Source: an uncultured Bacilli bacterium (GTDB lineage Bacteria > Bacillota_I > Bacilli_A > RF39 > UBA660). Taken from it: a stretch of DNA of 56,831 bases. Below the pieces are notes generated by a model. That model was not told where the DNA came from. It made no database searches and saw only the letters and a program-made list of their open reading frames with translations. The stretch covers positions 1 to 56,831 of the forward strand of contig CALVSK010000002.1 of assembly GCA_944359015.1 (NCBI GenBank), read 5' to 3'. Made by a program: the position numbers and the translations under genes. This document shows, piece after piece, positions 6,022-15,404 of the stretch (within the stretch, counting starts at the first letter, position 1; every line of letters starts with the position of its first letter).

Positions 6022-7068
6022 TTATCCATATATCTCTTTTAATTCTAAAAATTCTTCATAACTATCTGTAAAATATACATTACCAGTTATTATATCAGCA
6101 TAAAAATACACATAATTTGTATCTGCTGGTTCTAAAACTGCTTTTATGCTCTCAATAGATGGATTGCAAATCGGACCTATTGGCAAACCTAAAAAATCAG
6201 TTCTACGAGTATTATAAGGATTATCATCATTTAAGTCAACATTTGTTAAATTTTCCTTCATACTCTTTCCTACTCCATAATAAGTTGTTACATCCATACC
6301 AAGATTCATATTAATATCTAATCTTTTATATATTACTTGGCTAACTTTTGTCCTATCTTCATAACTTACAGCTTCTTTTTCTACTATACTTGCCATAGTA
6401 AAAATTTCATGTATATTATACTTGCTATTTTCAATTTCTTCTTTATATTCTTCTAATCTCTTGGATGTTTCATTCAATATTTTTTTTATTGCACTTTCTA
6501 ATGTTGTATCAACATAAAAATTGTAAGTATTAGGAAATAAATATCCTTCAAGTGCATAATATATATCATCTTTTAATATATCTTCAGTTAAAAACCAATA
6601 TTCATTAATTAAATTATTTAAAAACTCTTTTTCATTTATTTCTTCAATTATTTCATCATATTCAAGTACTGTGTTATCTGCCAGTAACTTTAAATATTCT
6701 TTTAATGTTATACCTTCATTAAATGTAATTGTTACTTCTTCTTTCTTGCTATTCATTATATCCCCATTAGCTAATATTTCAATTATTTTTCCAGTAGACA
6801 TATCTCTTTTTAATTCGTATTTTCCCGCCTGGATATTGGTATTGCCACTTAAAAAAATATATATTAATGTTACATACTTGTTTCTAATTAAATTTGCATT
6901 TTTTAAATTATCTACAATTTCTTCTTTACTATCTCCATTATTAACTACAAAATTTATTATTTCATTTTTATTAGATACTTTTCTTAATGACAAACAAAAA
7001 AAACTACTGAGTAATATAATAACTATTAATATTACTCCTAATATTATTGCTATTTTCTTTTTAGTCAT
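6022..7068 (-). CDS. mltG: Endolytic murein transglycosylase MltG (YceG-like)
   Basis: 348 aa with an N-terminal TM segment and the C-terminal YceG signature NPYNTRRTDFLGLPIGPICNP. Confidence 0.9.
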   Translation of the reverse strand: MTKKKIAIILGVILIVIILLSSFFCLSLRKVSNKNEIINFVVNNGDSKEEIVDNLKNANLIRNKYVTLIYIFLSGNTNIQAGKYELKRDMSTGKIIEILANGDIMNSKKEEVTITFNEGITLKEYLKLLADNTVLEYDEIIEEINEKEFLNNLINEYWFLTEDILKDDIYYALEGYLFPNTYNFYVDTTLESAIKKILNETSKRLEEYKEEIENSKYNIHEIFTMASIVEKEAVSYEDRTKVSQVIYKRLDINMNLGMDVTTYYGVGKSMKENLTNVDLNDDNPYNTRRTDFLGLPIGPICNPSIESIKAVLEPADTNYVYFYADIITGNVYFTDSYEEFLELKEIYG

Positions 7069-7748: not shown

Positions 7749-7993
7749 TTACCCATATATGAATTTAATAAAGCCATTAATATTTCACTACGTTCATACT
7801 TACTAATTTTTTTTCTTGAATCATTAAATGTTGTAATATATTTATAATCTCCTGTTGTTAAATATCCAACTAATTGATTGGTGGGATTATATCCTTTAAA
7901 TTCTAATGCTTCAATTACTTCATTTAAAGTTATTAATATTAATTCTTGTCTTAATTCTGCTACATTAAATATTGATGTTTTATTTAAATCCAT
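7745..7993 (-). CDS. ireB: IreB family regulatory phosphoprotein (UPF0297, YrzL-like)
   Basis: 82 aa with a KGYNPTNQLVGYLTTGD motif. Confidence 0.85.
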   Translation of the reverse strand: MDLNKTSIFNVAELRQELILITLNEVIEALEFKGYNPTNQLVGYLTTGDYKYITTFNDSRKKISKYERSEILMALLNSYMGK

Positions 7994-8049
7994 ATATTCA
8001 CCTTCTTTACTTCAAAATAATTCTAACAAAAATATTGCTTTTAAGCAAG

Positions 8050-8259
8050 TTAATTCAAGTTCATTTCTATATCACTTGCATATTCAATATTAAAATAATT
8101 ATTTAATGTAAATTTAACCTCTAAACCACTTTTTAAATAATCTGGTTCAAATAGTAAATTATCAAATAAAAAATAGTACATTTTATCATCATAACCAATT
8201 ATATAACCACAATTTTCAGAATAATCAAACCATTTTACCAAACCATAGATTTTTTGCAT
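8050..8259 (-). CDS. Small cold-shock-domain-like (OB-fold) protein, divergent
   Basis: The 69-aa sequence GLVKWFDYSENCGYIIGYDDKMYYFLFDNLL....LKSGLEVKFTL follows the GxVKWF..KGYGFI...D.F.H......L..G..V.F layout of CspA-type proteins. Its start ATG overlaps the upstream stop (TAATG), with a GGAGG ribosome-binding site inside the upstream ORF. Confidence 0.55.
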   Translation of the reverse strand: MQKIYGLVKWFDYSENCGYIIGYDDKMYYFLFDNLLFEPDYLKSGLEVKFTLNNYFNIEYASDIEMNLN

Positions 8260-10382
8260 TATCTACCTCCACTATCCATATTTAATTTTTTCTTTTGTTC
8301 ATCTAGTACACTAAGATATTCTTCATCCAATTCATCTTTGGCTTCAGTTATTAATTCATTTTCTTGAGTTATTATTATAAACCAATCCTCTGTATAATAT
8401 ATTGTCTTAATATTATAAAAATCAATTTGAATATTTAACCCTTTTTCTTGCAAAATATCCTTAATTATTTCCACTAAGTCTTTAAAATCACTATATAAAT
8501 CTCTTTTTTTATCCTTCATTATTCTAAATAATTCTTGATATTTTTGGTAAAATTGTTCATCTATTTTTTTAATTTCTCTTAGTAATTCCATTGCTGCAAC
8601 TTCTTGATGTATTTTTAACATTTGATATCGGTAATTTGTATTATTAATTTTACTTTCTTCAAGTTCATATAATTTTCTAATTATCTGTATTTCTTCAAAA
8701 GAAAAATTAACTTGACTGTATGATGTTGGCTTTAACTCTTTATAATCATAATCATATTCTACCGGTTCATCATATGATATATCATTTAGTGTTTTTGCTT
8801 CTTTTAATGAAACTAAAAAATGAGCGTATTCTAAATTACTATAAACTTCTTTCATTTCACTTTGTGGGTCATAAAAATGAAATTTGTATTTTGAAGATAT
8901 TTCTCCATATGTTTGACATTTATCTAAATTAGGGTTGTTTGTAGTTAGTACTGCTACTATACCGTACTCTCCTTCACTTTTTGCACTTTCTAATATTATT
9001 TTATCTGCCCACTCTCTTAGCATTGATGTAACTAACCTTTTTTCATTTTTATTTAATTTTATTCCTTCAATAGAATGTATTAACATTACATTTCCATTTC
9101 TTAATATTGGACAAAATGCTAAAGTATTACCACTTTGATTTTTTATTTCTACGCCTCCACCATAAGGCGTAGTTGCACAATAATGAAGTAAACTTGGATT
9201 ATAGCCAACTGAATCACCTGCTCCAACAGGTAAAAAACAATTATCGGTCCTAAAACCAGCACTTAATATATCTCTATCTTGAGGATGAAAAGTATATAAA
9301 GTATAATCACTAAAATTTATTGTAATATTTGGAAACTTTTTACTGTAATTGCCTTCCATCATTCGAGAAAGTTCTATTGTCCTATCAATTAATTTATGTA
9401 GTAATAAAACATATTTACTATTTGTCCCTATATAATCTAATATATCAGATTCTAATAACGGCTCATCTCTTTCTTCATATTGAGACAACTTGCTAATTCG
9501 AGTCTTTTTCTTACCTTTATAATATTCTTTTTGTTTTATTCTTCTTTTTGTATTTGCTAGTTCATTTAAAATATCTCTAATTTGTGCAATATTAAAACGC
9601 AAATTTAATGGTACTAAATTTTTTCGTTTAGTATATTCTATTAGTATTTTATACCATTCTTTTGCAATTAAATTTATATTTTCTACAAAAAATATTACAT
9701 CTTGACTTGCAAGTTTTGCTAAGTATTGTTTTATTGGTGTATCTTTCGCATTATAGTTTTCACCTAGTAACATTTTAATTAATTTTTCATTCAAATTAGG
9801 TTCTTTTTTATTAATATCATAAGTTACGTTACTTAAATCTATGTCAGAAAAAATATTTTCAATTTCTGTTTTACTTATAACCCCATATCTTTGATTTAAT
9901 AAATCTCTGCCTTTAAAATAACCCATAAAGTTATATATTTTTACACTATATTCTACTGCTTCATGATATAAAAAACCTAACCCCATTAATAAGTCTACAA
10001 ATTCGTTAAAGTGATTGACATTCATGTTTTTTAATATATCGATAGATAAACGAGATACAAAATTTTCAAGTTCTTTTGGTAAATTTCCATAATATTTAAC
10101 ATATAAATATTGTTTATAATTTTTTATATTAATTATACTTTCTATACTTCTTTTGTCACTAAATGCTAAAGTCAATAAACTATATTTTTCTGCATCATCT
10201 ATTTCTTTTATTTTTATTTTTGCTAGTAAACTACCTAAATATTCATAATATGTACTATTTTGAGGGATATCTAATTTAAATTCGTATACTTTCTTTGCCA
10301 TTTGCCACTTTTCGGGATTATTATTATTTAATGAATCAAATGTCTCCCAAAATGTTTTTATATTAAATTCTTCATTTTCCAT
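8259..10382 (-). CDS. Large hypothetical protein with no recognisable domain
   Basis: The ORF track gives 8259-10391. The first GTG overlaps the AGGTG ribosome-binding site, so ATG at 10382 (MENEEF...) is the likely start, giving 707 aa. The middle carries a Cys/His-containing block, FRTDNCFLPVGAGDSVGYNPSLLHYCATTPYGGG...LIHSIEG. The C-terminus looks coiled-coil. Confidence 0.8.
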   Translation of the reverse strand: MENEEFNIKTFWETFDSLNNNNPEKWQMAKKVYEFKLDIPQNSTYYEYLGSLLAKIKIKEIDDAEKYSLLTLAFSDKRSIESIINIKNYKQYLYVKYYGNLPKELENFVSRLSIDILKNMNVNHFNEFVDLLMGLGFLYHEAVEYSVKIYNFMGYFKGRDLLNQRYGVISKTEIENIFSDIDLSNVTYDINKKEPNLNEKLIKMLLGENYNAKDTPIKQYLAKLASQDVIFFVENINLIAKEWYKILIEYTKRKNLVPLNLRFNIAQIRDILNELANTKRRIKQKEYYKGKKKTRISKLSQYEERDEPLLESDILDYIGTNSKYVLLLHKLIDRTIELSRMMEGNYSKKFPNITINFSDYTLYTFHPQDRDILSAGFRTDNCFLPVGAGDSVGYNPSLLHYCATTPYGGGVEIKNQSGNTLAFCPILRNGNVMLIHSIEGIKLNKNEKRLVTSMLREWADKIILESAKSEGEYGIVAVLTTNNPNLDKCQTYGEISSKYKFHFYDPQSEMKEVYSNLEYAHFLVSLKEAKTLNDISYDEPVEYDYDYKELKPTSYSQVNFSFEEIQIIRKLYELEESKINNTNYRYQMLKIHQEVAAMELLREIKKIDEQFYQKYQELFRIMKDKKRDLYSDFKDLVEIIKDILQEKGLNIQIDFYNIKTIYYTEDWFIIITQENELITEAKDELDEEYLSVLDEQKKKLNMDSGGR

Positions 10383-10410
10383 TTTATACACCTATTATTA
10401 TTATAACATA

Positions 10411-10440
10411 TAAAAAAAGATGAGCAAAATTACTTCATCT
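10411..10440 (-). terminator. Terminator/attenuator-like hairpin upstream of the 707-aa gene
   Basis: On the minus strand the sequence is AGATGAAG-N8-CTCATCT followed by T7. The hairpin lies about 20 nt upstream of the ribosome-binding site of the gene starting at 10382. Confidence 0.45.
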
Positions 10441-10446
10441 ATTTTT

Positions 10447-10594
10447 AGAGGATAAGGCAGATATTTATTTGCTTATGTTTAAAAAGAAAACTTTAATTTA
10501 TATTGTAGGAACTATAAAACTATAATTTATATTATAGAAAGGTTTGTAAAAGAGTTAATGATTTATAAACAAATATCTTTGCCTTCCTCGCTCT
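10447..10594. other. Long imperfect inverted repeat (structured leader RNA, or a MITE- or inverton-like element)
   Basis: The arms AGAGGATAAGGCAGATATTTATTT (10447-10470) and AAACAAATATCTTTGCCTTCCTCGCTCT (10568-10594) are largely complementary. The interior holds the direct repeat TAATTTATATTGTAG (10494-10508) / TAATTTATATTATAG (10523-10537). Confidence 0.5.
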
Positions 10595-10692
10595 TAATAT
10601 TAATAAATAGATTTGATAAAAGTATGTTTTTAATGTGAAAAAAAAGTGAAATTAGGTTTTAAATTAATAATAAAAATTTAATAAAAAAAAAC

Positions 10693-10721
10693 TTGAAACA
10701 AACAATTAAATGTGATATTAT
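10693..10721 (+). promoter_or_regulatory. Sigma-A-type promoter for the tRNA pair
   Basis: TTGAAA (10693-10698), a 17-nt spacer, then TATTAT (10716-10721), ending about 10 nt before the tRNA 5' end. Confidence 0.5.
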
Positions 10722-10731
10722 TATTTTGCAT

Positions 10732-10808
10732 GGACCTCTAGCTCAGTTGGTTAGAGCATCCGGCTCATAACCGGGCGGTCGTAGGTTCGAGTCCTACGAG
10801 GTCCACCA
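10732..10808 (+). tRNA. tRNA with anticodon CAT, most like lysidine-dependent tRNA-Ile2 rather than elongator or initiator Met
   Basis: It folds as a cloverleaf: acceptor GGACCTC/GAGGTCC, D-arm TAGCTCAGTTGGTTAGAGCA, anticodon loop CTCATAA, T-arm GTAGGTTCGAGTCCTAC and an encoded CCA. G1-C72 excludes an initiator. From memory the sequence is close to B. subtilis tRNA-Ile(CAU). Confidence 0.9.
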
Positions 10809-10819
10809 TTTTTTTATTT

Positions 10820-10904
10820 GCAGGTATGGCGGAATTGGTAGACGCGATAGACTTAGGATCTATTGGATTATTCTGTGGGGGTTCAAGTCCCTCTACCTGC
10901 ACCA
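10820..10904 (+). tRNA. tRNA-Leu (anticodon TAG)
   Basis: Acceptor GCAGGTA/TACCTGC, D-arm GCGGAATTGGTAGACGC, anticodon loop CTTAGGA, a long variable arm, a TTCAAGT T-loop and an encoded CCA. Confidence 0.9.
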
Positions 10905-11041
10905 TTATTTATGTATTTTATATGATAATAAATAATATTTAAATTTTGAGTCAAAGGAATGATTTAACATTCTTTTTTTATTGGTTAATTATCAAATAAC
11001 TTGTTTGGCACAATATAATTTAAAAAAGCATTAACAAATCG

Positions 11042-12082
11042 TTAATCCTTTTTATTTTCTAAAATCCTTTTTTGAACATCGGATGGAAAAAATGAGTTAT
11101 TGATTCCTATTTCAAAATATGCATCTTTTAATGACATTCCTCCATTTTGGTATTTAATTGGTAATAAATCTATTCCTAATAAACTTTTTACCTCATCGGC
11201 ACTAAATCTATCAAAACATACTCCTACTAAATTATCAAATAAGGGGATTCCAAGTTGAAGAAAAAACTTTCTTATTTCTTCTATCTTTTGTACCATAGTG
11301 TAATCCAGATTTTGAAATAATGCCCCTATTTGTTTTATAACTTCACTATATGTTCCGCTAGAAACTTTAGGCAAAACCTTATTTTTTGTTTCTATTTCTT
11401 CTCCGAACTTTTCTTCTGTTAGATAAACATGTAAGTCATCTTTATTTGTTTCTCCACAACTGAAAACACCCGCATATTTTTTGTATGGATAGTTTCCTTT
11501 TTCAAAATCATAATTCCCCTTTGCTATACTATGTAATATATATCCATTTAAATTATCAAATGGCATTACATAAATCTTTTCTTGATATCCATCAGTAAAC
11601 TCTTCATAAGAAAACATTCTACTGTTTTTAAAAAAATTAATTATTGTTTTTTTGCCTTCTTTATTTTCATAATGTAGGCTCGGATGACATAAACAACTTA
11701 TTCCATACTCATTATCAGTAGTACAACTAAGTAAAAATTCCCCTTTAATTTTGGCTTCTTTACTCTCTAAATCAAAAATTATTTTATTTGTCCAACTTCC
11801 AAATACTCCTTTTTTCTCTTTATTGTTTGCTCTTTCTACAATACCAAATACATTGGGTATTGTATGTTTAGCATTTAATATATAATTATCTGTTTTAACT
11901 TCTATTTGAAAATAATCGTCATAAATTATAACTTTACCTACAATATTATTATTAGAGTCTATTATATTAATTGTTTTAAGATTTTCTGAAAGTTCACGAG
12001 CATCTAATATTAATTCAAAAGTATTTAAAAACACTTTTATTGCATTTATTGCTTGTTTCTTAGTTAATTTTAATTTGCTCAT
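11042..12082 (-). CDS. Hypothetical protein (orphan)
   Basis: The ORF track gives 11042-12091. AGGTGG followed 5 nt later by ATG at 12082 (MSKLKL...) is the likely start, giving 346 aa. No motif was recognised. Confidence 0.7.
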   Translation of the reverse strand: MSKLKLTKKQAINAIKVFLNTFELILDARELSENLKTINIIDSNNNIVGKVIIYDDYFQIEVKTDNYILNAKHTIPNVFGIVERANNKEKKGVFGSWTNKIIFDLESKEAKIKGEFLLSCTTDNEYGISCLCHPSLHYENKEGKKTIINFFKNSRMFSYEEFTDGYQEKIYVMPFDNLNGYILHSIAKGNYDFEKGNYPYKKYAGVFSCGETNKDDLHVYLTEEKFGEEIETKNKVLPKVSSGTYSEVIKQIGALFQNLDYTMVQKIEEIRKFFLQLGIPLFDNLVGVCFDRFSADEVKSLLGIDLLPIKYQNGGMSLKDAYFEIGINNSFFPSDVQKRILENKKD

Positions 12083-12096
12083 TATTACCACCTATA

Positions 12097-12147: not shown

Positions 12148-12567
12148 TTATTTATCTTGTAACATGTTTAATAAATCTATTTTAAACATATCTTTTGAAG
12201 CATTTGCTTTAGAAATCATTATTCCCTTATATGTTGTTAGTTCACTTCTATGACCTTCTAATAATATATCAGATGGTGTTATTGTTTCTAATACAACAAC
12301 TTCTTCTTTTTTATGTACTGTGTAAATTAATTTAACTTCTCCATGAATTTGTGCAAACATTTTATCGCTTGGAAGTTTTAATTCATACTTTTCAGTACCA
12401 TTTTTCTTATTAACTGAGATTAATTCTCCAAGAAATTTTCCATTTCTTAATGCTGGATAATAATCAAAGTTTAATTTTTTGAAAGCTAGCATGTTATATT
12501 TTTTTAATGCCCTTTCTAACTTCTTAAATTCATTTTCACAAATGTATTCTAAAACATATCCTTTCAT
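12148..12567 (-). CDS. Hypothetical protein (orphan) with weak RelE/Gp49-like beta-strand pattern
   Basis: The track ORF runs to 12657, but a strong promoter (TTGACA 12629-12624, 17-nt spacer, TATAAT 12606-12601) lies inside it. The likely start is ATG at 12567 (MKGYVLEY...), preceded by AGGGGG, giving 139 aa. The stretch VKLIYTVHKKEEVVVLETI only loosely resembles RelE/ParE-type toxins. Confidence 0.6.
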   Translation of the reverse strand: MKGYVLEYICENEFKKLERALKKYNMLAFKKLNFDYYPALRNGKFLGELISVNKKNGTEKYELKLPSDKMFAQIHGEVKLIYTVHKKEEVVVLETITPSDILLEGHRSELTTYKGIMISKANASKDMFKIDLLNMLQDK

Positions 12568-12704
12568 TTTTCCATACCCCCTAATTACTCGAACAATATC
12601 ATTATAGCACAAACTACTTTTTTTGTCAAATTTGTGTAAATTTCTCATATTGTTCATAGTATTTCCATATTGGACCCAAATTATACCAAATTTTACTAAT
12701 TATG

Positions 12705-13910: not shown

Positions 13911-14066
13911 TTTATGTTGATAACTCGCGGACCCTCGCCGTTTTAGATGCGGCGAGGGCTTTTGTTTCTCCTTCTAACTTATTTTATACGGATTACTCTC
14001 TGTTCCATCTCCACTAACATATGTGACATTAGAGTTTAGATAAAAGACTGGTCTGGCCGAATAGCC
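13911..14066 (-). repeat. Near-identical 3' module shared by P2 and P3 (gene tail, stop codon, GC hairpin and about 20 nt beyond)
   Basis: 13911-14066 aligns with 36498-36652 with only a handful of substitutions and one 1-nt indel, by eye. It includes TTTATGTTGATAACTCGCG, the hairpin, and codons for GYSARPVFYLNSNVTYVSGDGTE.NPY.IS. Confidence 0.85.
13932..13958. other. GC-rich 9-bp-stem hairpin downstream of P2
   Basis: CCCTCGCCG-N9-CGGCGAGGG. The T-run lies on the plus-strand side only, which is the wrong side for terminating the minus-strand gene. The same stem with a different loop occurs at 36518-36544. Confidence 0.8.
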
Positions 14067-15404
14067 ATTGTTCGCGCTGAAGTCGTACAAGCTGCCGTTG
14101 ATGTACAGACAGAAAACAATACTACTATCCGACGAATGCGGAGTAATTGTCCATTCATAATCGCCTAAATATAGCCAATTATTACCACTATATAAATCTG
14201 AATAAAAATAATCATATAACGGGATTGTCCAATCTGAAATTTCGGATGAAAATCCATAATCACTTACATACATTAATCCTATTTTCATACTGTCTGTTGT
14301 ACTACTTGAACTACTTCCTACTTCTGTATCATAATATTGTTTTGCTGTATTTGTGTCACTCCAAGCCATTCCTCCGACTTTCCAAGTATGTGTTGCTATT
14401 TTGTTTTGCCATGTTTCACTTAATGTATTGTAATATGTGGTATTTAATGTCGTTCTTATATCTGACGTACTCCATGTATTGCTTCCGCTACTTGCCCATG
14501 CATAATCTCCATAACTTGTTGACTTTATTAGTTTTACTTCACTCCCAAAAACTCCAATTATTCGGTATAAGTTATCACTTGGACAAGTTTCTGCATCACT
14601 GCCAAAGCATACATAATTATTTGGATTTGCTCCAGCATACCTATAACTATTATCTCCTGCACTGTTTGATAAATTTGCATCATGATAATATAAACCATTT
14701 GAACCATCTGTATATGTACTTATTATATAATCTGCAAAAGTTTCTTTATGTTCTTCTTTTTGAATTTGAATTTCTGTAATCAATCTTTTACCAAAATTTA
14801 AAGATTGGTCAAAACTAAGATTTAAGTATGTCAATTTAAAATTCCAAGTTTGAGTTGTTGCGGTTTTGCTAGAATTTGAAGTTATTGTATAGGAATTTGC
14901 AACAGTAAATAAACCTGTTTTAGTTGTAATGTCAAATCCTGATACACCATTAAATGTTCCATAAGTTAAACCATCAATATTTGTAACTTCGCTACCATTA
15001 GGGTCTGTTATTGTAAGAATAATTTCAGGTGTTGAACCATCTGAATAAACAAATGTGTTTGTTGGAATATTAAAATATACAAAATATGTATGTTCCGCTG
15101 TATTATTTGTTGTATTCGCTAAAAGTGAGGCACTTGCTGTTGTAGTAGATACTAAATTTGCACCATTTTCTGGCAATGTTGTTGGTGTTGCATCTATTTT
15201 TAACGGGTCCCCTACTGCAAATTCTAATTTATCAACATCATCACTATTTAATGTAACGTTTTCTCTCGCTTCATTAATGTTAGCTGCTAAAAATGCATAT
15301 GTAATTCGAACTACTAATACTAAAAATACACCTATAATTAATACACCTAAAAAATATAATATATCTTTTTTCTTTATTTTGTTTAGCAATTTCACTTGAC
15401 TCAC
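13974..15404 (-). CDS. Membrane-anchored surface protein, paralog P2, with a C-terminal hypervariable (DGR-VR-like) patch
   Basis: 476-aa ORF with a basic N-terminus and a TM segment (ILYFLGVLIIGVFLVLVV). The N-terminal half is unique. The C-terminal ~250 aa is homologous to P1 and P3. The start may be a GTG or TTG a few codons in. Confidence 0.85.
   Translation of the reverse strand: MSQVKLLNKIKKKDILYFLGVLIIGVFLVLVVRITYAFLAANINEARENVTLNSDDVDKLEFAVGDPLKIDATPTTLPENGANLVSTTTASASLLANTTNNTAEHTYFVYFNIPTNTFVYSDGSTPEIILTITDPNGSEVTNIDGLTYGTFNGVSGFDITTKTGLFTVANSYTITSNSSKTATTQTWNFKLTYLNLSFDQSLNFGKRLITEIQIQKEEHKETFADYIISTYTDGSNGLYYHDANLSNSAGDNSYRYAGANPNNYVCFGSDAETCPSDNLYRIIGVFGSEVKLIKSTSYGDYAWASSGSNTWSTSDIRTTLNTTYYNTLSETWQNKIATHTWKVGGMAWSDTNTAKQYYDTEVGSSSSSTTDSMKIGLMYVSDYGFSSEISDWTIPLYDYFYSDLYSGNNWLYLGDYEWTITPHSSDSSIVFCLYINGSLYDFSANNGYSARPVFYLNSNVTYVSGDGTESNPYKIS
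14067..14147 (-). other. Candidate variable region (VR) of P2
   Basis: The coding strand reads att act ccg cat tcg tcg gat agt agt att gtt ttc tgt ctg tac atc aac ggc agc ttg tac gac ttc agc gcg aac aat. The run of C/G-ending codons is atypical for this genome, and differences from P3 concentrate here. Confidence 0.6.

Follow-up and report, generated by a model that had tools for sequence, protein, structure and literature searches.

Paired genes for a divergent cold-shock-domain protein and a large protein with a predicted GNAT-type core, located between a structured RNA and ireB in gut Bacilli

The stretch of DNA examined in this study, in the following referred to as the window, comprises 56,831 nucleotides and corresponds to contig C2 (CALVSK010000002.1) of the assembly GCA_944359015.1 (here G000), an approximately 0.98 Mb genome of an uncultured Bacilli bacterium that is about 90% complete and distributed over 56 contigs; further genomes, contigs and loci are designated by G, C and L numbers, respectively. 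The stretch is carried by sequencing runs listed as chicken gut metagenomes. On its minus strand, in surroundings with a GC content of 22–28%, lie the two genes that are the subject of this analysis and that encode a large protein of 707 aa and a small, cold-shock-domain (CSD)-like protein of 69 aa. The open reading frame (ORF) of the large protein runs from either 10391 (GTG) or 10382 (ATG) to 8259. The ATG, with the sequence AGGTG located 6 nt 5′ of it, yields the protein of 707 aa (8262..10382), whereas the alternative GTG start results in a version of 710 aa; 15 orthologues have lengths of 705–722 aa. Its TAA stop codon shares the A with the ATG of the 69-aa ORF (8050–8259), so that both genes overlap by 1 nt in the sequence TAATG. 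An initial annotation of the locus had described the two ORFs as a translationally coupled pair, and this overlap was found as claimed.

The same arrangement is present in other loci. Among those which encode a large protein of similar length (short form) and which include the DNA downstream of it, namely the window, G012, G009, G020, G024, L069, L070, and L116, the CSD gene is located 3′ of the large gene and overlaps its stop codon by 1 or 4 nt in all eight cases. As L116 is nearly identical to G020, these represent at least seven distinct loci; a further one (L073) ends at a contig edge. Longer relatives (long form, 1118–1467 aa, 29–34% identical) also have an adjacent CSD gene in six of the six informative loci, with the CSD gene positioned upstream and overlapping in L074, L075, L076, and L120 and 9–30 nt downstream in L118 and L121. 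The long-form locus L119, which starts 77 nt before the large gene and contains no CSD gene downstream, was left out as uninformative. The CSD gene thus adjoins the large gene in 14 of the 14 informative closer loci, and the two therefore constitute a conserved two-gene module; no third gene is common to the module loci. From the coupling and co-conservation of the genes we infer that the two proteins may form a complex. A paralogue of the large protein within the same genus (G238, 493 aa) has no adjacent CSD gene.

For the large protein, searches against Pfam, NCBIfam, PADLOC, and PHROGs yielded no family at E ≤ 1, and a profile of its family against the PDB sequences yielded nothing below an E value of 0.09. 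A word-indexed search retrieved 15 relatives of 705–722 aa with 40–45% identity, none of which is named or contains a Pfam domain. An exhaustive search of 1.84 billion representative proteins extended the family to 89 relatives at E ≤ 1e-3, 49 of them at E ≤ 1e-30, so that the pair can no longer be called an orphan. Many of these relatives are 1000–1500 aa long, with the window protein aligning to their C-terminal ~650 residues. In 6 of the 42 relatives scanned, N-terminal DUF4116 repeats were found, while none of the 42 matched a GNAT or other enzymatic family (E ≤ 0.01); for DUF4116 itself, no functional account was found in the parts of the literature that were accessible. A search for longer proteins holding the core described below returned only one protein, which was already known. 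The relatives also include a set of three loci (G056: L010, L016, L018, L019; 580–875 aa) in a 1.1-Mb genome of another genus, which hints at a small multigene family in that genome. A relation to PcfJ-like proteins (PF14284) was suggested by the ESM Atlas (0.80, 0.76) and by weak BFVD matches (E 0.04–0.3). As no Pfam match was obtained, no match to PF14284 was present in G000 and an hhalign comparison with a three-sequence PcfJ profile gave a probability of 0.1–0.2%, this relation was ruled down and is regarded as a lead only.

The most conserved part of the large-protein family is a cysteine-bearing block, which had already been singled out in the initial annotation as Cys/His-bearing; the cysteines are conserved, whereas the histidine of the motif LIHSIEG is not invariant. 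Near-invariant residues of the core comprise D369, G376, C382, F383, Y401, C402, P425, N429-G-N431, S437, and E439. Residues kept in at least 80% of the 81 aligned core sequences are K348, P351, D369, G376, C381/C382, F383, G387, D390, Y401, C402, Y407-G408, P425, R428-N-G-N431, S437, E439, Y514, and Y545. In addition, K283, K292, K293, and R295, located in a basic linker N-terminal of the core, are invariant.

The 69-aa protein matches the Pfam CSD model (PF00313) with an E value of 0.009 and 16.3 bits, which is below the gathering cut-off of 27 bits. Similarly weak matches were obtained for the PADLOC model CSD_V (E 7.5e-4) and the NCBIfam models of CspC, CspE, and the retron Se72 effector (E 0.007–0.016), and four of seven orthologues match the Pfam CSD at E ≤ 0.1, with a best E value of 0.0038. 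A profile built from the seven orthologues, searched against the PDB, gave 39 matches at E ≤ 1, all of them to CSD proteins (best 2kcm_A, 8e-6); with a 13-member profile that also included the partners of distant relatives, all 30 matches at E ≤ 1e-3 were CSD proteins (best 1.4e-7). Within the small protein, G18-Y19-I20 is invariant, as are Y28 and F30 inside a (Y/F)-(Y/F)-F-E stretch, and the CSD partners of the long forms show the pattern KWF...KGYGYI...YFFE. These aromatic stretches occupy the positions of the RNP1- and RNP2-like motifs of CSDs on strands 2 and 3. These profile comparisons identify the 69-aa protein as a cold-shock domain of divergent sequence, in keeping with its earlier description as CSD/OB-like. 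Next to this gene, a canonical CSD gene is found elsewhere in all 31 genomes of the genus that were searched (in G000 at C7:2325–2513), and the CSD of the pair is therefore an extra, dedicated paralogue.

In the absence of a sequence match, the large protein was modeled with AlphaFold. The full-length model, which was based on an alignment of 16 sequences, has a pLDDT of 81.8 and a pTM of 0.58. It predicts an all-helical N-terminal domain (residues 1–340; 9363..10382), for which no fold match was obtained and within which the conserved basic linker forms a low-confidence segment (residues ~278–300; nt 9483–9551), an alpha/beta core (residues ~345–535; 8778..9350), two long antiparallel helices (residues 556–650) and a small beta-beta-beta-alpha domain at the C-terminus (residues 655–703; 8274..8717 together with the hairpin). 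The helical hairpin corresponds to what had been annotated as a coiled-coil tail. In Foldseek, the full-length model yielded no match at E ≤ 1e-3, with GCN5-type acetyltransferases as best rows at an E value of ~1e-2. The results of a wide search with VIA were dominated by the long helical hairpin, and a second search returned NatD with a Z of 8.1 and an rmsd of 3.2 Å over 148 residues.

A model of the core alone, calculated for residues 335–560 from an alignment of 81 sequences, reached a pLDDT of 95.6 and a pTM of 0.92. Foldseek gave five matches at E ≤ 1e-3 for this model, all of them GNAT proteins (best 8gxf_A, E 1.9e-4). In a wide search with VIA-align, Z values were moderate and ranged from 7.2 to 8.8 for the 50 rows listed, 43 of which are named as acetyl- or acyltransferases; the remaining seven are FemA, PA3270 with CoA, Rv0802c, Rv1347c, an unnamed domain from M. 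jannaschii, 4cry_B, and the phage Mu protein Mom. FemA stands at rank 1 with a Z of 8.8 and an rmsd of 3.1 Å over 134 residues, tied with others, since rows within 1 Z unit count as ties. The assignment is hence made because nearly all listed rows are of the GNAT type and not because of any single match. The core of the large protein is thus confidently predicted to adopt a GNAT fold, so that the earlier finding of no recognisable domain holds for sequence families but not for structure. In GNAT enzymes, acetyl-CoA is bound by a pyrophosphate-binding loop with the motif Q/R-x-x-G-x-G/A. A regular-expression search of the aligned segment between strand 4 and helix 3 found this motif in none of the 81 relatives, and the window protein has no match to a curated GNAT model of Pfam or NCBIfam at E ≤ 1. 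As the loop motif is absent while other residues are kept, the core was filed as a GNAT fold and not as an acetyl-CoA-dependent acetyltransferase.

The occurrence of the pair among related genomes, a point that had been raised for this locus before, is patchy. Of the 41 relatives searched, 5 contain the large gene, 4 of them being among the 24 other genomes of the genus, and a profile search detected it in 9 of 201 genomes of the family. The pair is present in at least 7 of the 56 genomes of the genus (G000, G009, G012, G020, G024, G388, and G390). It is accordingly no order-wide core gene, and no clear homology to a housekeeping enzyme was detected. Judged by their IreB proteins, relatives at a similar distance from the window genome include carriers (G009, 89%; G020, 88%) as well as genomes without the pair (G006, 88%; G245, 87%). 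Pairwise protein identities across six loci are 42–66% for the large protein and 38–62% for the CSD partner, compared to 78–94% for IreB, 68–79% for RuvX, and 62–77% for MltG. The loci which are closest for the module are also closest for the flanking proteins; this agreement fits one old acquisition, after which the module was inherited vertically, changed at an accelerated rate and was lost in places, and not repeated transfer. The base composition of the pair is the same as that of its surroundings. Contigs from two other studies contain the pair at ~99% identity and none skips it. The 23 variants of the large gene listed within the species comprise 11 synonymous and 12 non-synonymous changes, and the roughly estimated omega of ~0.3 suggests that the large gene is under purifying selection. 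Searches for relatives in phages and plasmids (tblastn) and in viral contigs (scan) yielded none, and an origin of the pair from a phage or plasmid was dismissed on these grounds; a single BFVD model of an uncharacterized phage protein matched with an E value of 2.5e-6 at a TM-score of 0.25.

Upstream of the pair lies a structured RNA element (10412..10589, minus strand) which consists of a closing stem, an ~85-nt invariant core, and a terminator hairpin (10418–10440) followed by a T-run. Six pair-bearing loci share an invariant block of ~100 nt at this position, though their large proteins are only 41–45% identical to that of the window. A 278-nt query from G012 gave matches in 50 of the 56 genomes of the genus at E ≤ 1e-3 and in 42 of 56 at E ≤ 1e-19; the short weak matches are probably due to chance in AT-rich DNA. 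In pair-less genomes with coordinates, the element was located ~50–330 nt 5′ of ireB on the same strand in 24 of 24 cases, as for example in G006 (RNA 6564–6751, ireB 6250–6495), and among 30 fetched loci the large gene directly follows the RNA in 5 and not in the other 25. Since the RNA precedes ireB also in genomes without the pair, it is an RNA of the host locus. The gene unit consists of two parts and not of the three that had been proposed, in which a structured leader with an attenuator-like hairpin was counted as a component of the pair. The structure itself is retained, as the leader stretch folds better than its shuffles (z −3.09) and ends in a hairpin with a T-run.

When loci with and without the pair are aligned, the order of elements is a promoter-like TGnTATTAT, the RNA, a hairpin with T-run, the sequence TTGCT(T/A)-17 nt-TA(G/A)AAT, an AGGTG ribosome-binding site (RBS), and ireB. 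In the window, the ireB promoter-like region (TTGCTT, 17 nt, TAGAAT; 8020..8048, minus strand, read by eye from the alignment with pair-less genomes) survives directly after the CSD stop codon, from 8048 to 8020. The pair therefore appears as a 2.35-kb insert between the RNA terminator and the promoter region of ireB, and no integrase or transposase accompanies it. This placement also reassigns the terminator-like hairpin previously annotated at 8031–8048, which proved to be a weak 6-bp A/T-rich stem over the −35-like TTGCTT of that promoter region; a consensus terminator scan of 7900–11100, the rules of which require three G-C pairs, found no terminator. Between the T-run of the RNA and the AGGTG RBS of the large gene, an extended −10-like sequence, TGTTATAAT (10400..10408, minus strand), was noted by eye and may serve as a promoter of the pair. 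It was not listed by a consensus promoter scan, which requires a −35 element.

The ~85-nt core of the RNA is invariant across 27 distinct variants from the genus (loci L078–L107), while the closing stem varies and is complementary in most of them. Minimum-energy folds were computed for 12 representative variants, and in 10 of these a 5′ (G/A)GAGG and a 3′ CCUC stretch form a stem that encloses the invariant core; the terminator stems vary in sequence with pairing kept. Duplexes between the 5′ and the 3′ flank are on average more stable than those of shuffled sequences of matched composition (mean z −1.9). For 9 of the 27 variants, the duplex energy of the native flanks was reached by no more than 5 of the 300 shuffles, and one group of five variants is without such pairing. 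RNAalifold, applied to a MAFFT alignment, returned the invariant hairpin only and no covariation, because the flanks align poorly. Rfam gave no match for the element, with the tRNAs as sole matches, and also no family beside ireB in 15 loci of other genera. An identification of the leader as a known RNA was rejected; a genuine 6S RNA is encoded elsewhere (G000:C12). By BLAST, both genus genomes searched (two of two) gave strong matches to the core, and the 299 genomes from the rest of the family yielded five, all of them weak. The element therewith appears to be confined to this genus, and the ~180-nt RNA is a candidate for a new cis-regulatory RNA, riboswitch or small RNA.

On the other side of the RNA element lies a hotspot, bounded at its far end by a conserved 169-aa gene with the tRNA pair, which contains variable genes across genomes (L051–L063, L116, L117), among them genes for AAA_21/AAA_15 ATPases, MvaI/BcnI nucleases, a C5 methylase, NUDIX, HD, and ASCH proteins, and a DDE transposase. 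In G012 and G024 only truncated remnants of an ATPase or a nuclease are left, and in the window their place is taken by a 349-aa ORF without a match and by the tRNA pair in inverted orientation. The gene pair hence borders this variable, defense-flavored island and is not located inside it. The defense or stress context suggested for the locus at the outset is therefore upheld in so far as the pair is accessory and borders a variable island, whereas direct signs of defense, such as a PADLOC model matching the large protein or relatives in phages, plasmids or viral contigs, were not found.

With regard to function, we tentatively propose that the module encodes a nucleic-acid-directed transferase complex with a conflict- or stress-related rather than a housekeeping role, a reading which we consider possible, if well short of probable. 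In such a complex, the CSD subunit, dedicated to its partner and evolving equally fast, would together with the basic linker bind a single-stranded nucleic acid, with RNA as the likeliest candidate. The GNAT-like core of the presumably cytoplasmic large protein, devoid of the acetyl-CoA loop and carrying a cluster of Cys, Asp, Asn, Ser, and Glu residues, could then transfer acyl or aminoacyl groups, with the bound nucleic acid or an associated protein as either donor or acceptor. Expression of the module may start at the extended −10-like promoter of its own, result from read-through, or draw on both, and the module represents an accessory, long-resident, and rapidly diverging insert between the RNA terminator and the ireB promoter. 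A more far-reaching version of this proposal is decidedly speculative and, as a whole, not likely. It envisages a new type of nucleic-acid-directed transferase, that is, a cysteine-bearing, loop-less GNAT-fold enzyme with a helical arm like that of tRNA synthetases or Fem proteins, which would use RNA (e.g., aminoacyl-tRNA) as donor or target, receive this RNA from the CSD protein and act as a fast-evolving conflict system of small-genome gut Bacilli, placed behind a hitherto undescribed, genus-invariant structured RNA which has a terminator and may gate its expression. Several observations weigh against the proposed transferase complex. In most of the more distant relatives no CSD gene adjoins the gene of the large protein, and L011 is the only distant family-level locus that has one, although many of these loci have truncated flanks, several of them ending at the gene itself. 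The acetyl-CoA loop motif is absent from all 81 relatives, so that the core might bind a ligand without catalyzing a reaction, and the Z values of 7–9 in the fold searches are moderate. Most long-form relatives sit among housekeeping genes, there is no defense model for the large protein, and the phage, plasmid and viral searches gave no relative. Finally, the pair is co-directional with an RNA-metabolism operon (RuvX, O-methyltransferase, U32 peptidase), which fits a housekeeping-like RNA function equally well.

The patchy distribution and fast divergence of the pair would also be expected of an anti-phage defense or abortive infection system, in which the large protein would be the effector and the CSD protein the sensor of phage nucleic acid. 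Such a system would be in line with the MvaI/BcnI nucleases, the C5 methylase, and the AAA_21 ATPase of the bordering island, with the genes for RhuM and for an AAA-ATPase_like plus PDDEXK_9 protein that flank one long-form locus, and with the weak similarity of the CSD protein to PADLOC CSD_V of type V retrons (E 7.5e-4) and to the Se72 effector of NCBIfam (E 0.016). These retron-like scores are, however, far below the cut-offs (15.1 vs. 82 bits for the Se72 effector), family scans of the flanking ORFs revealed no reverse transcriptase (RT) beside the pair, and no PADLOC model matches the large protein. Furthermore, the pair seems to be vertically inherited at one site rather than hopping between sites, and housekeeping neighbors prevail at the long-form loci; a role in phage defense is considered rather unlikely. 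Similarly unlikely, and by a little more so, is an accessory enzyme that modifies or handles tRNA or rRNA, with the CSD protein as RNA chaperone and co-expression with the ireB-ruvX operon. The position of the pair directly 5′ of, and co-directional with, the genes for RuvX, the O-methyltransferase, and the U32 peptidase argues for such a function, as do the CSD partner with the basic linker and the fact that FemA ties for the best structural match. GNAT-fold enzymes acting on RNA or using aminoacyl-tRNA exist, with TmcA and FemX as examples. On the other hand, only a minority of the genus and family genomes carry the pair, its divergence is far faster than that of housekeeping RNA enzymes, the acetyl-CoA motif is missing and no known family of RNA-modification enzymes was matched.

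If the GNAT-like core were inactive, the large protein could be a scaffold or regulator that is tethered to RNA by the CSD protein. The lack of the cofactor loop motif in all 81 relatives and the mostly helical, repeat-like architecture, which is extended by DUF4116 repeats in longer relatives (6 of the 42 scanned), would agree with such a pseudoenzyme. The tight cluster of near-invariant polar and cysteine residues, which is kept across the 81 relatives down to ~20–25% identity and resembles an active or ligand site, speaks against this reading, and the pseudoenzyme is regarded as improbable. Least likely of all is a toxin-antitoxin pair in which one protein neutralizes the other. The two genes overlap and always occur together, GNAT-fold toxins are known, and a weaker Foldseek match of the core is a GNAT structure annotated as bacterial toxin (7byy_A, E 7.8e-3). 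Type II systems with GNAT toxins, however, combine a small acetyl-CoA-dependent toxin with a DNA-binding antitoxin. The large proteins of 707–1467 aa are far above this toxin size and lack the acetyl-CoA motif, the partner is a CSD and not a DNA-binding antitoxin, both gene orders occur, and no PADLOC or toxin-antitoxin model matched, so that this option is very doubtful.

Compared to known systems, the core resembles GNAT N-acyltransferases such as E. coli YhbS (4rs2), NatD (4u9w), and GCN5 (1ygh) in its fold (Z 8.3–8.7, rmsd 3.4–4.1 Å over 145–147 residues), whereas the identity is only 5–13% and both the Pfam GNAT match and the acetyl-CoA loop motif (0 of 81) are lacking. Unlike these enzymes, it forms one part of a chain of 707 to ~1500 aa, together with helical domains and a hairpin, and it has conserved cysteines and a dedicated CSD partner. 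FemA and FemX (1lrz, 6snr) likewise combine a GNAT-like fold with a long helical hairpin, and the Fem enzymes also do without the acetyl-CoA loop. The whole model of the large protein matches them with Z values of 8.7 and 8.4, at a whole-model rmsd of 15 Å. In Fem proteins there are two GNAT-like domains and the coiled-coil arm is an insertion, whereas in the large protein one such domain is seen, followed by the hairpin, and no sequence similarity between them was found. The small protein has the same length and the same strand and aromatic pattern as the cold-shock proteins of the CspA family (PF00313), but differs from them by its fast divergence, its constant tie to the large gene, and a score that, when it is searched alone, falls short of the Pfam cut-off. 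To the effectors of type V and Se72 retrons it shows the weak sequence similarity given above (NF038236). In contrast to retrons, which have an adjacent RT and an msr-msd RNA, no RT is encoded among the flanking ORFs, and the upstream RNA belongs to the host locus and also occurs in genomes without the pair. Phage Mu Mom (8bv8), a DNA-modifying enzyme, provides a precedent for a GNAT fold that acts on nucleic acid; it is matched by the core at a Z of 7.2 over 141 residues, while neither sequence similarity nor a phage context was found. In the portions of the anti-phage, retron, acetyltransferase, and CSD literature that could be consulted, no account of such a pair of CSD and GNAT-fold proteins was encountered.

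Although represented by 89 relatives among 1.84 billion proteins, the family of the large protein is nameless in every sequence library searched, and the present analysis predicts its fold, links it to a constant partner, and points to an active-site cluster that is open to testing. Should the core and the CSD protein act on RNA, they would add a new pairing to the known cellular means of modifying or disabling nucleic acids. The locus moreover shows that an accessory module can reside long-term inside the promoter region of a housekeeping gene, and the unclassified invariant RNA before ireB merits study by itself.

As to the neighborhood of the module, the genes 3′ of the pair encode, in this order, IreB, RuvX, a DUF1292 protein, YceG/MltG, an O-methyltransferase, and a U32 peptidase, which upholds the gene order described initially. 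The accompanying view that the pair occupies the place of alaS of Bacillus is not sustained, as it rests on a presumed gene order of B. subtilis with alaS at the corresponding spot, and alaS is intact on another contig of the host genome (G000:C3). The tRNA pair reported next to the locus was found at 10732..10904 (plus strand) and comprises tRNA-Met(CAT) and tRNA-Leu(TAG), conserved neighbors of this locus. It is oriented opposite to the gene pair in the window, while both have the same direction in five distinct other loci, which suggests a local inversion in the window. Beside the tRNAs, the 349-aa ORF of the variable island (11042–12091, minus strand) has no match in the family libraries and no counterpart in 14 related loci compared. 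The adjacent 169-aa protein (12148–12657, minus strand) is likewise without a family match, yet it is 81–95% identical across the genus and thereby exceeds IreB in conservation; on visual inspection, its C-terminal half resembles RelE/ParE, with a weak PADLOC match only (E 0.019). Matches to DUF6273 near the cut-off were obtained for two further regions of the window, 158–1267 (21.7 bits, just below) and 13974–15404 (25.4 bits, just above), and relatives of the protein encoded at 158–1267 also flank the long-form modules in L074 and L075.

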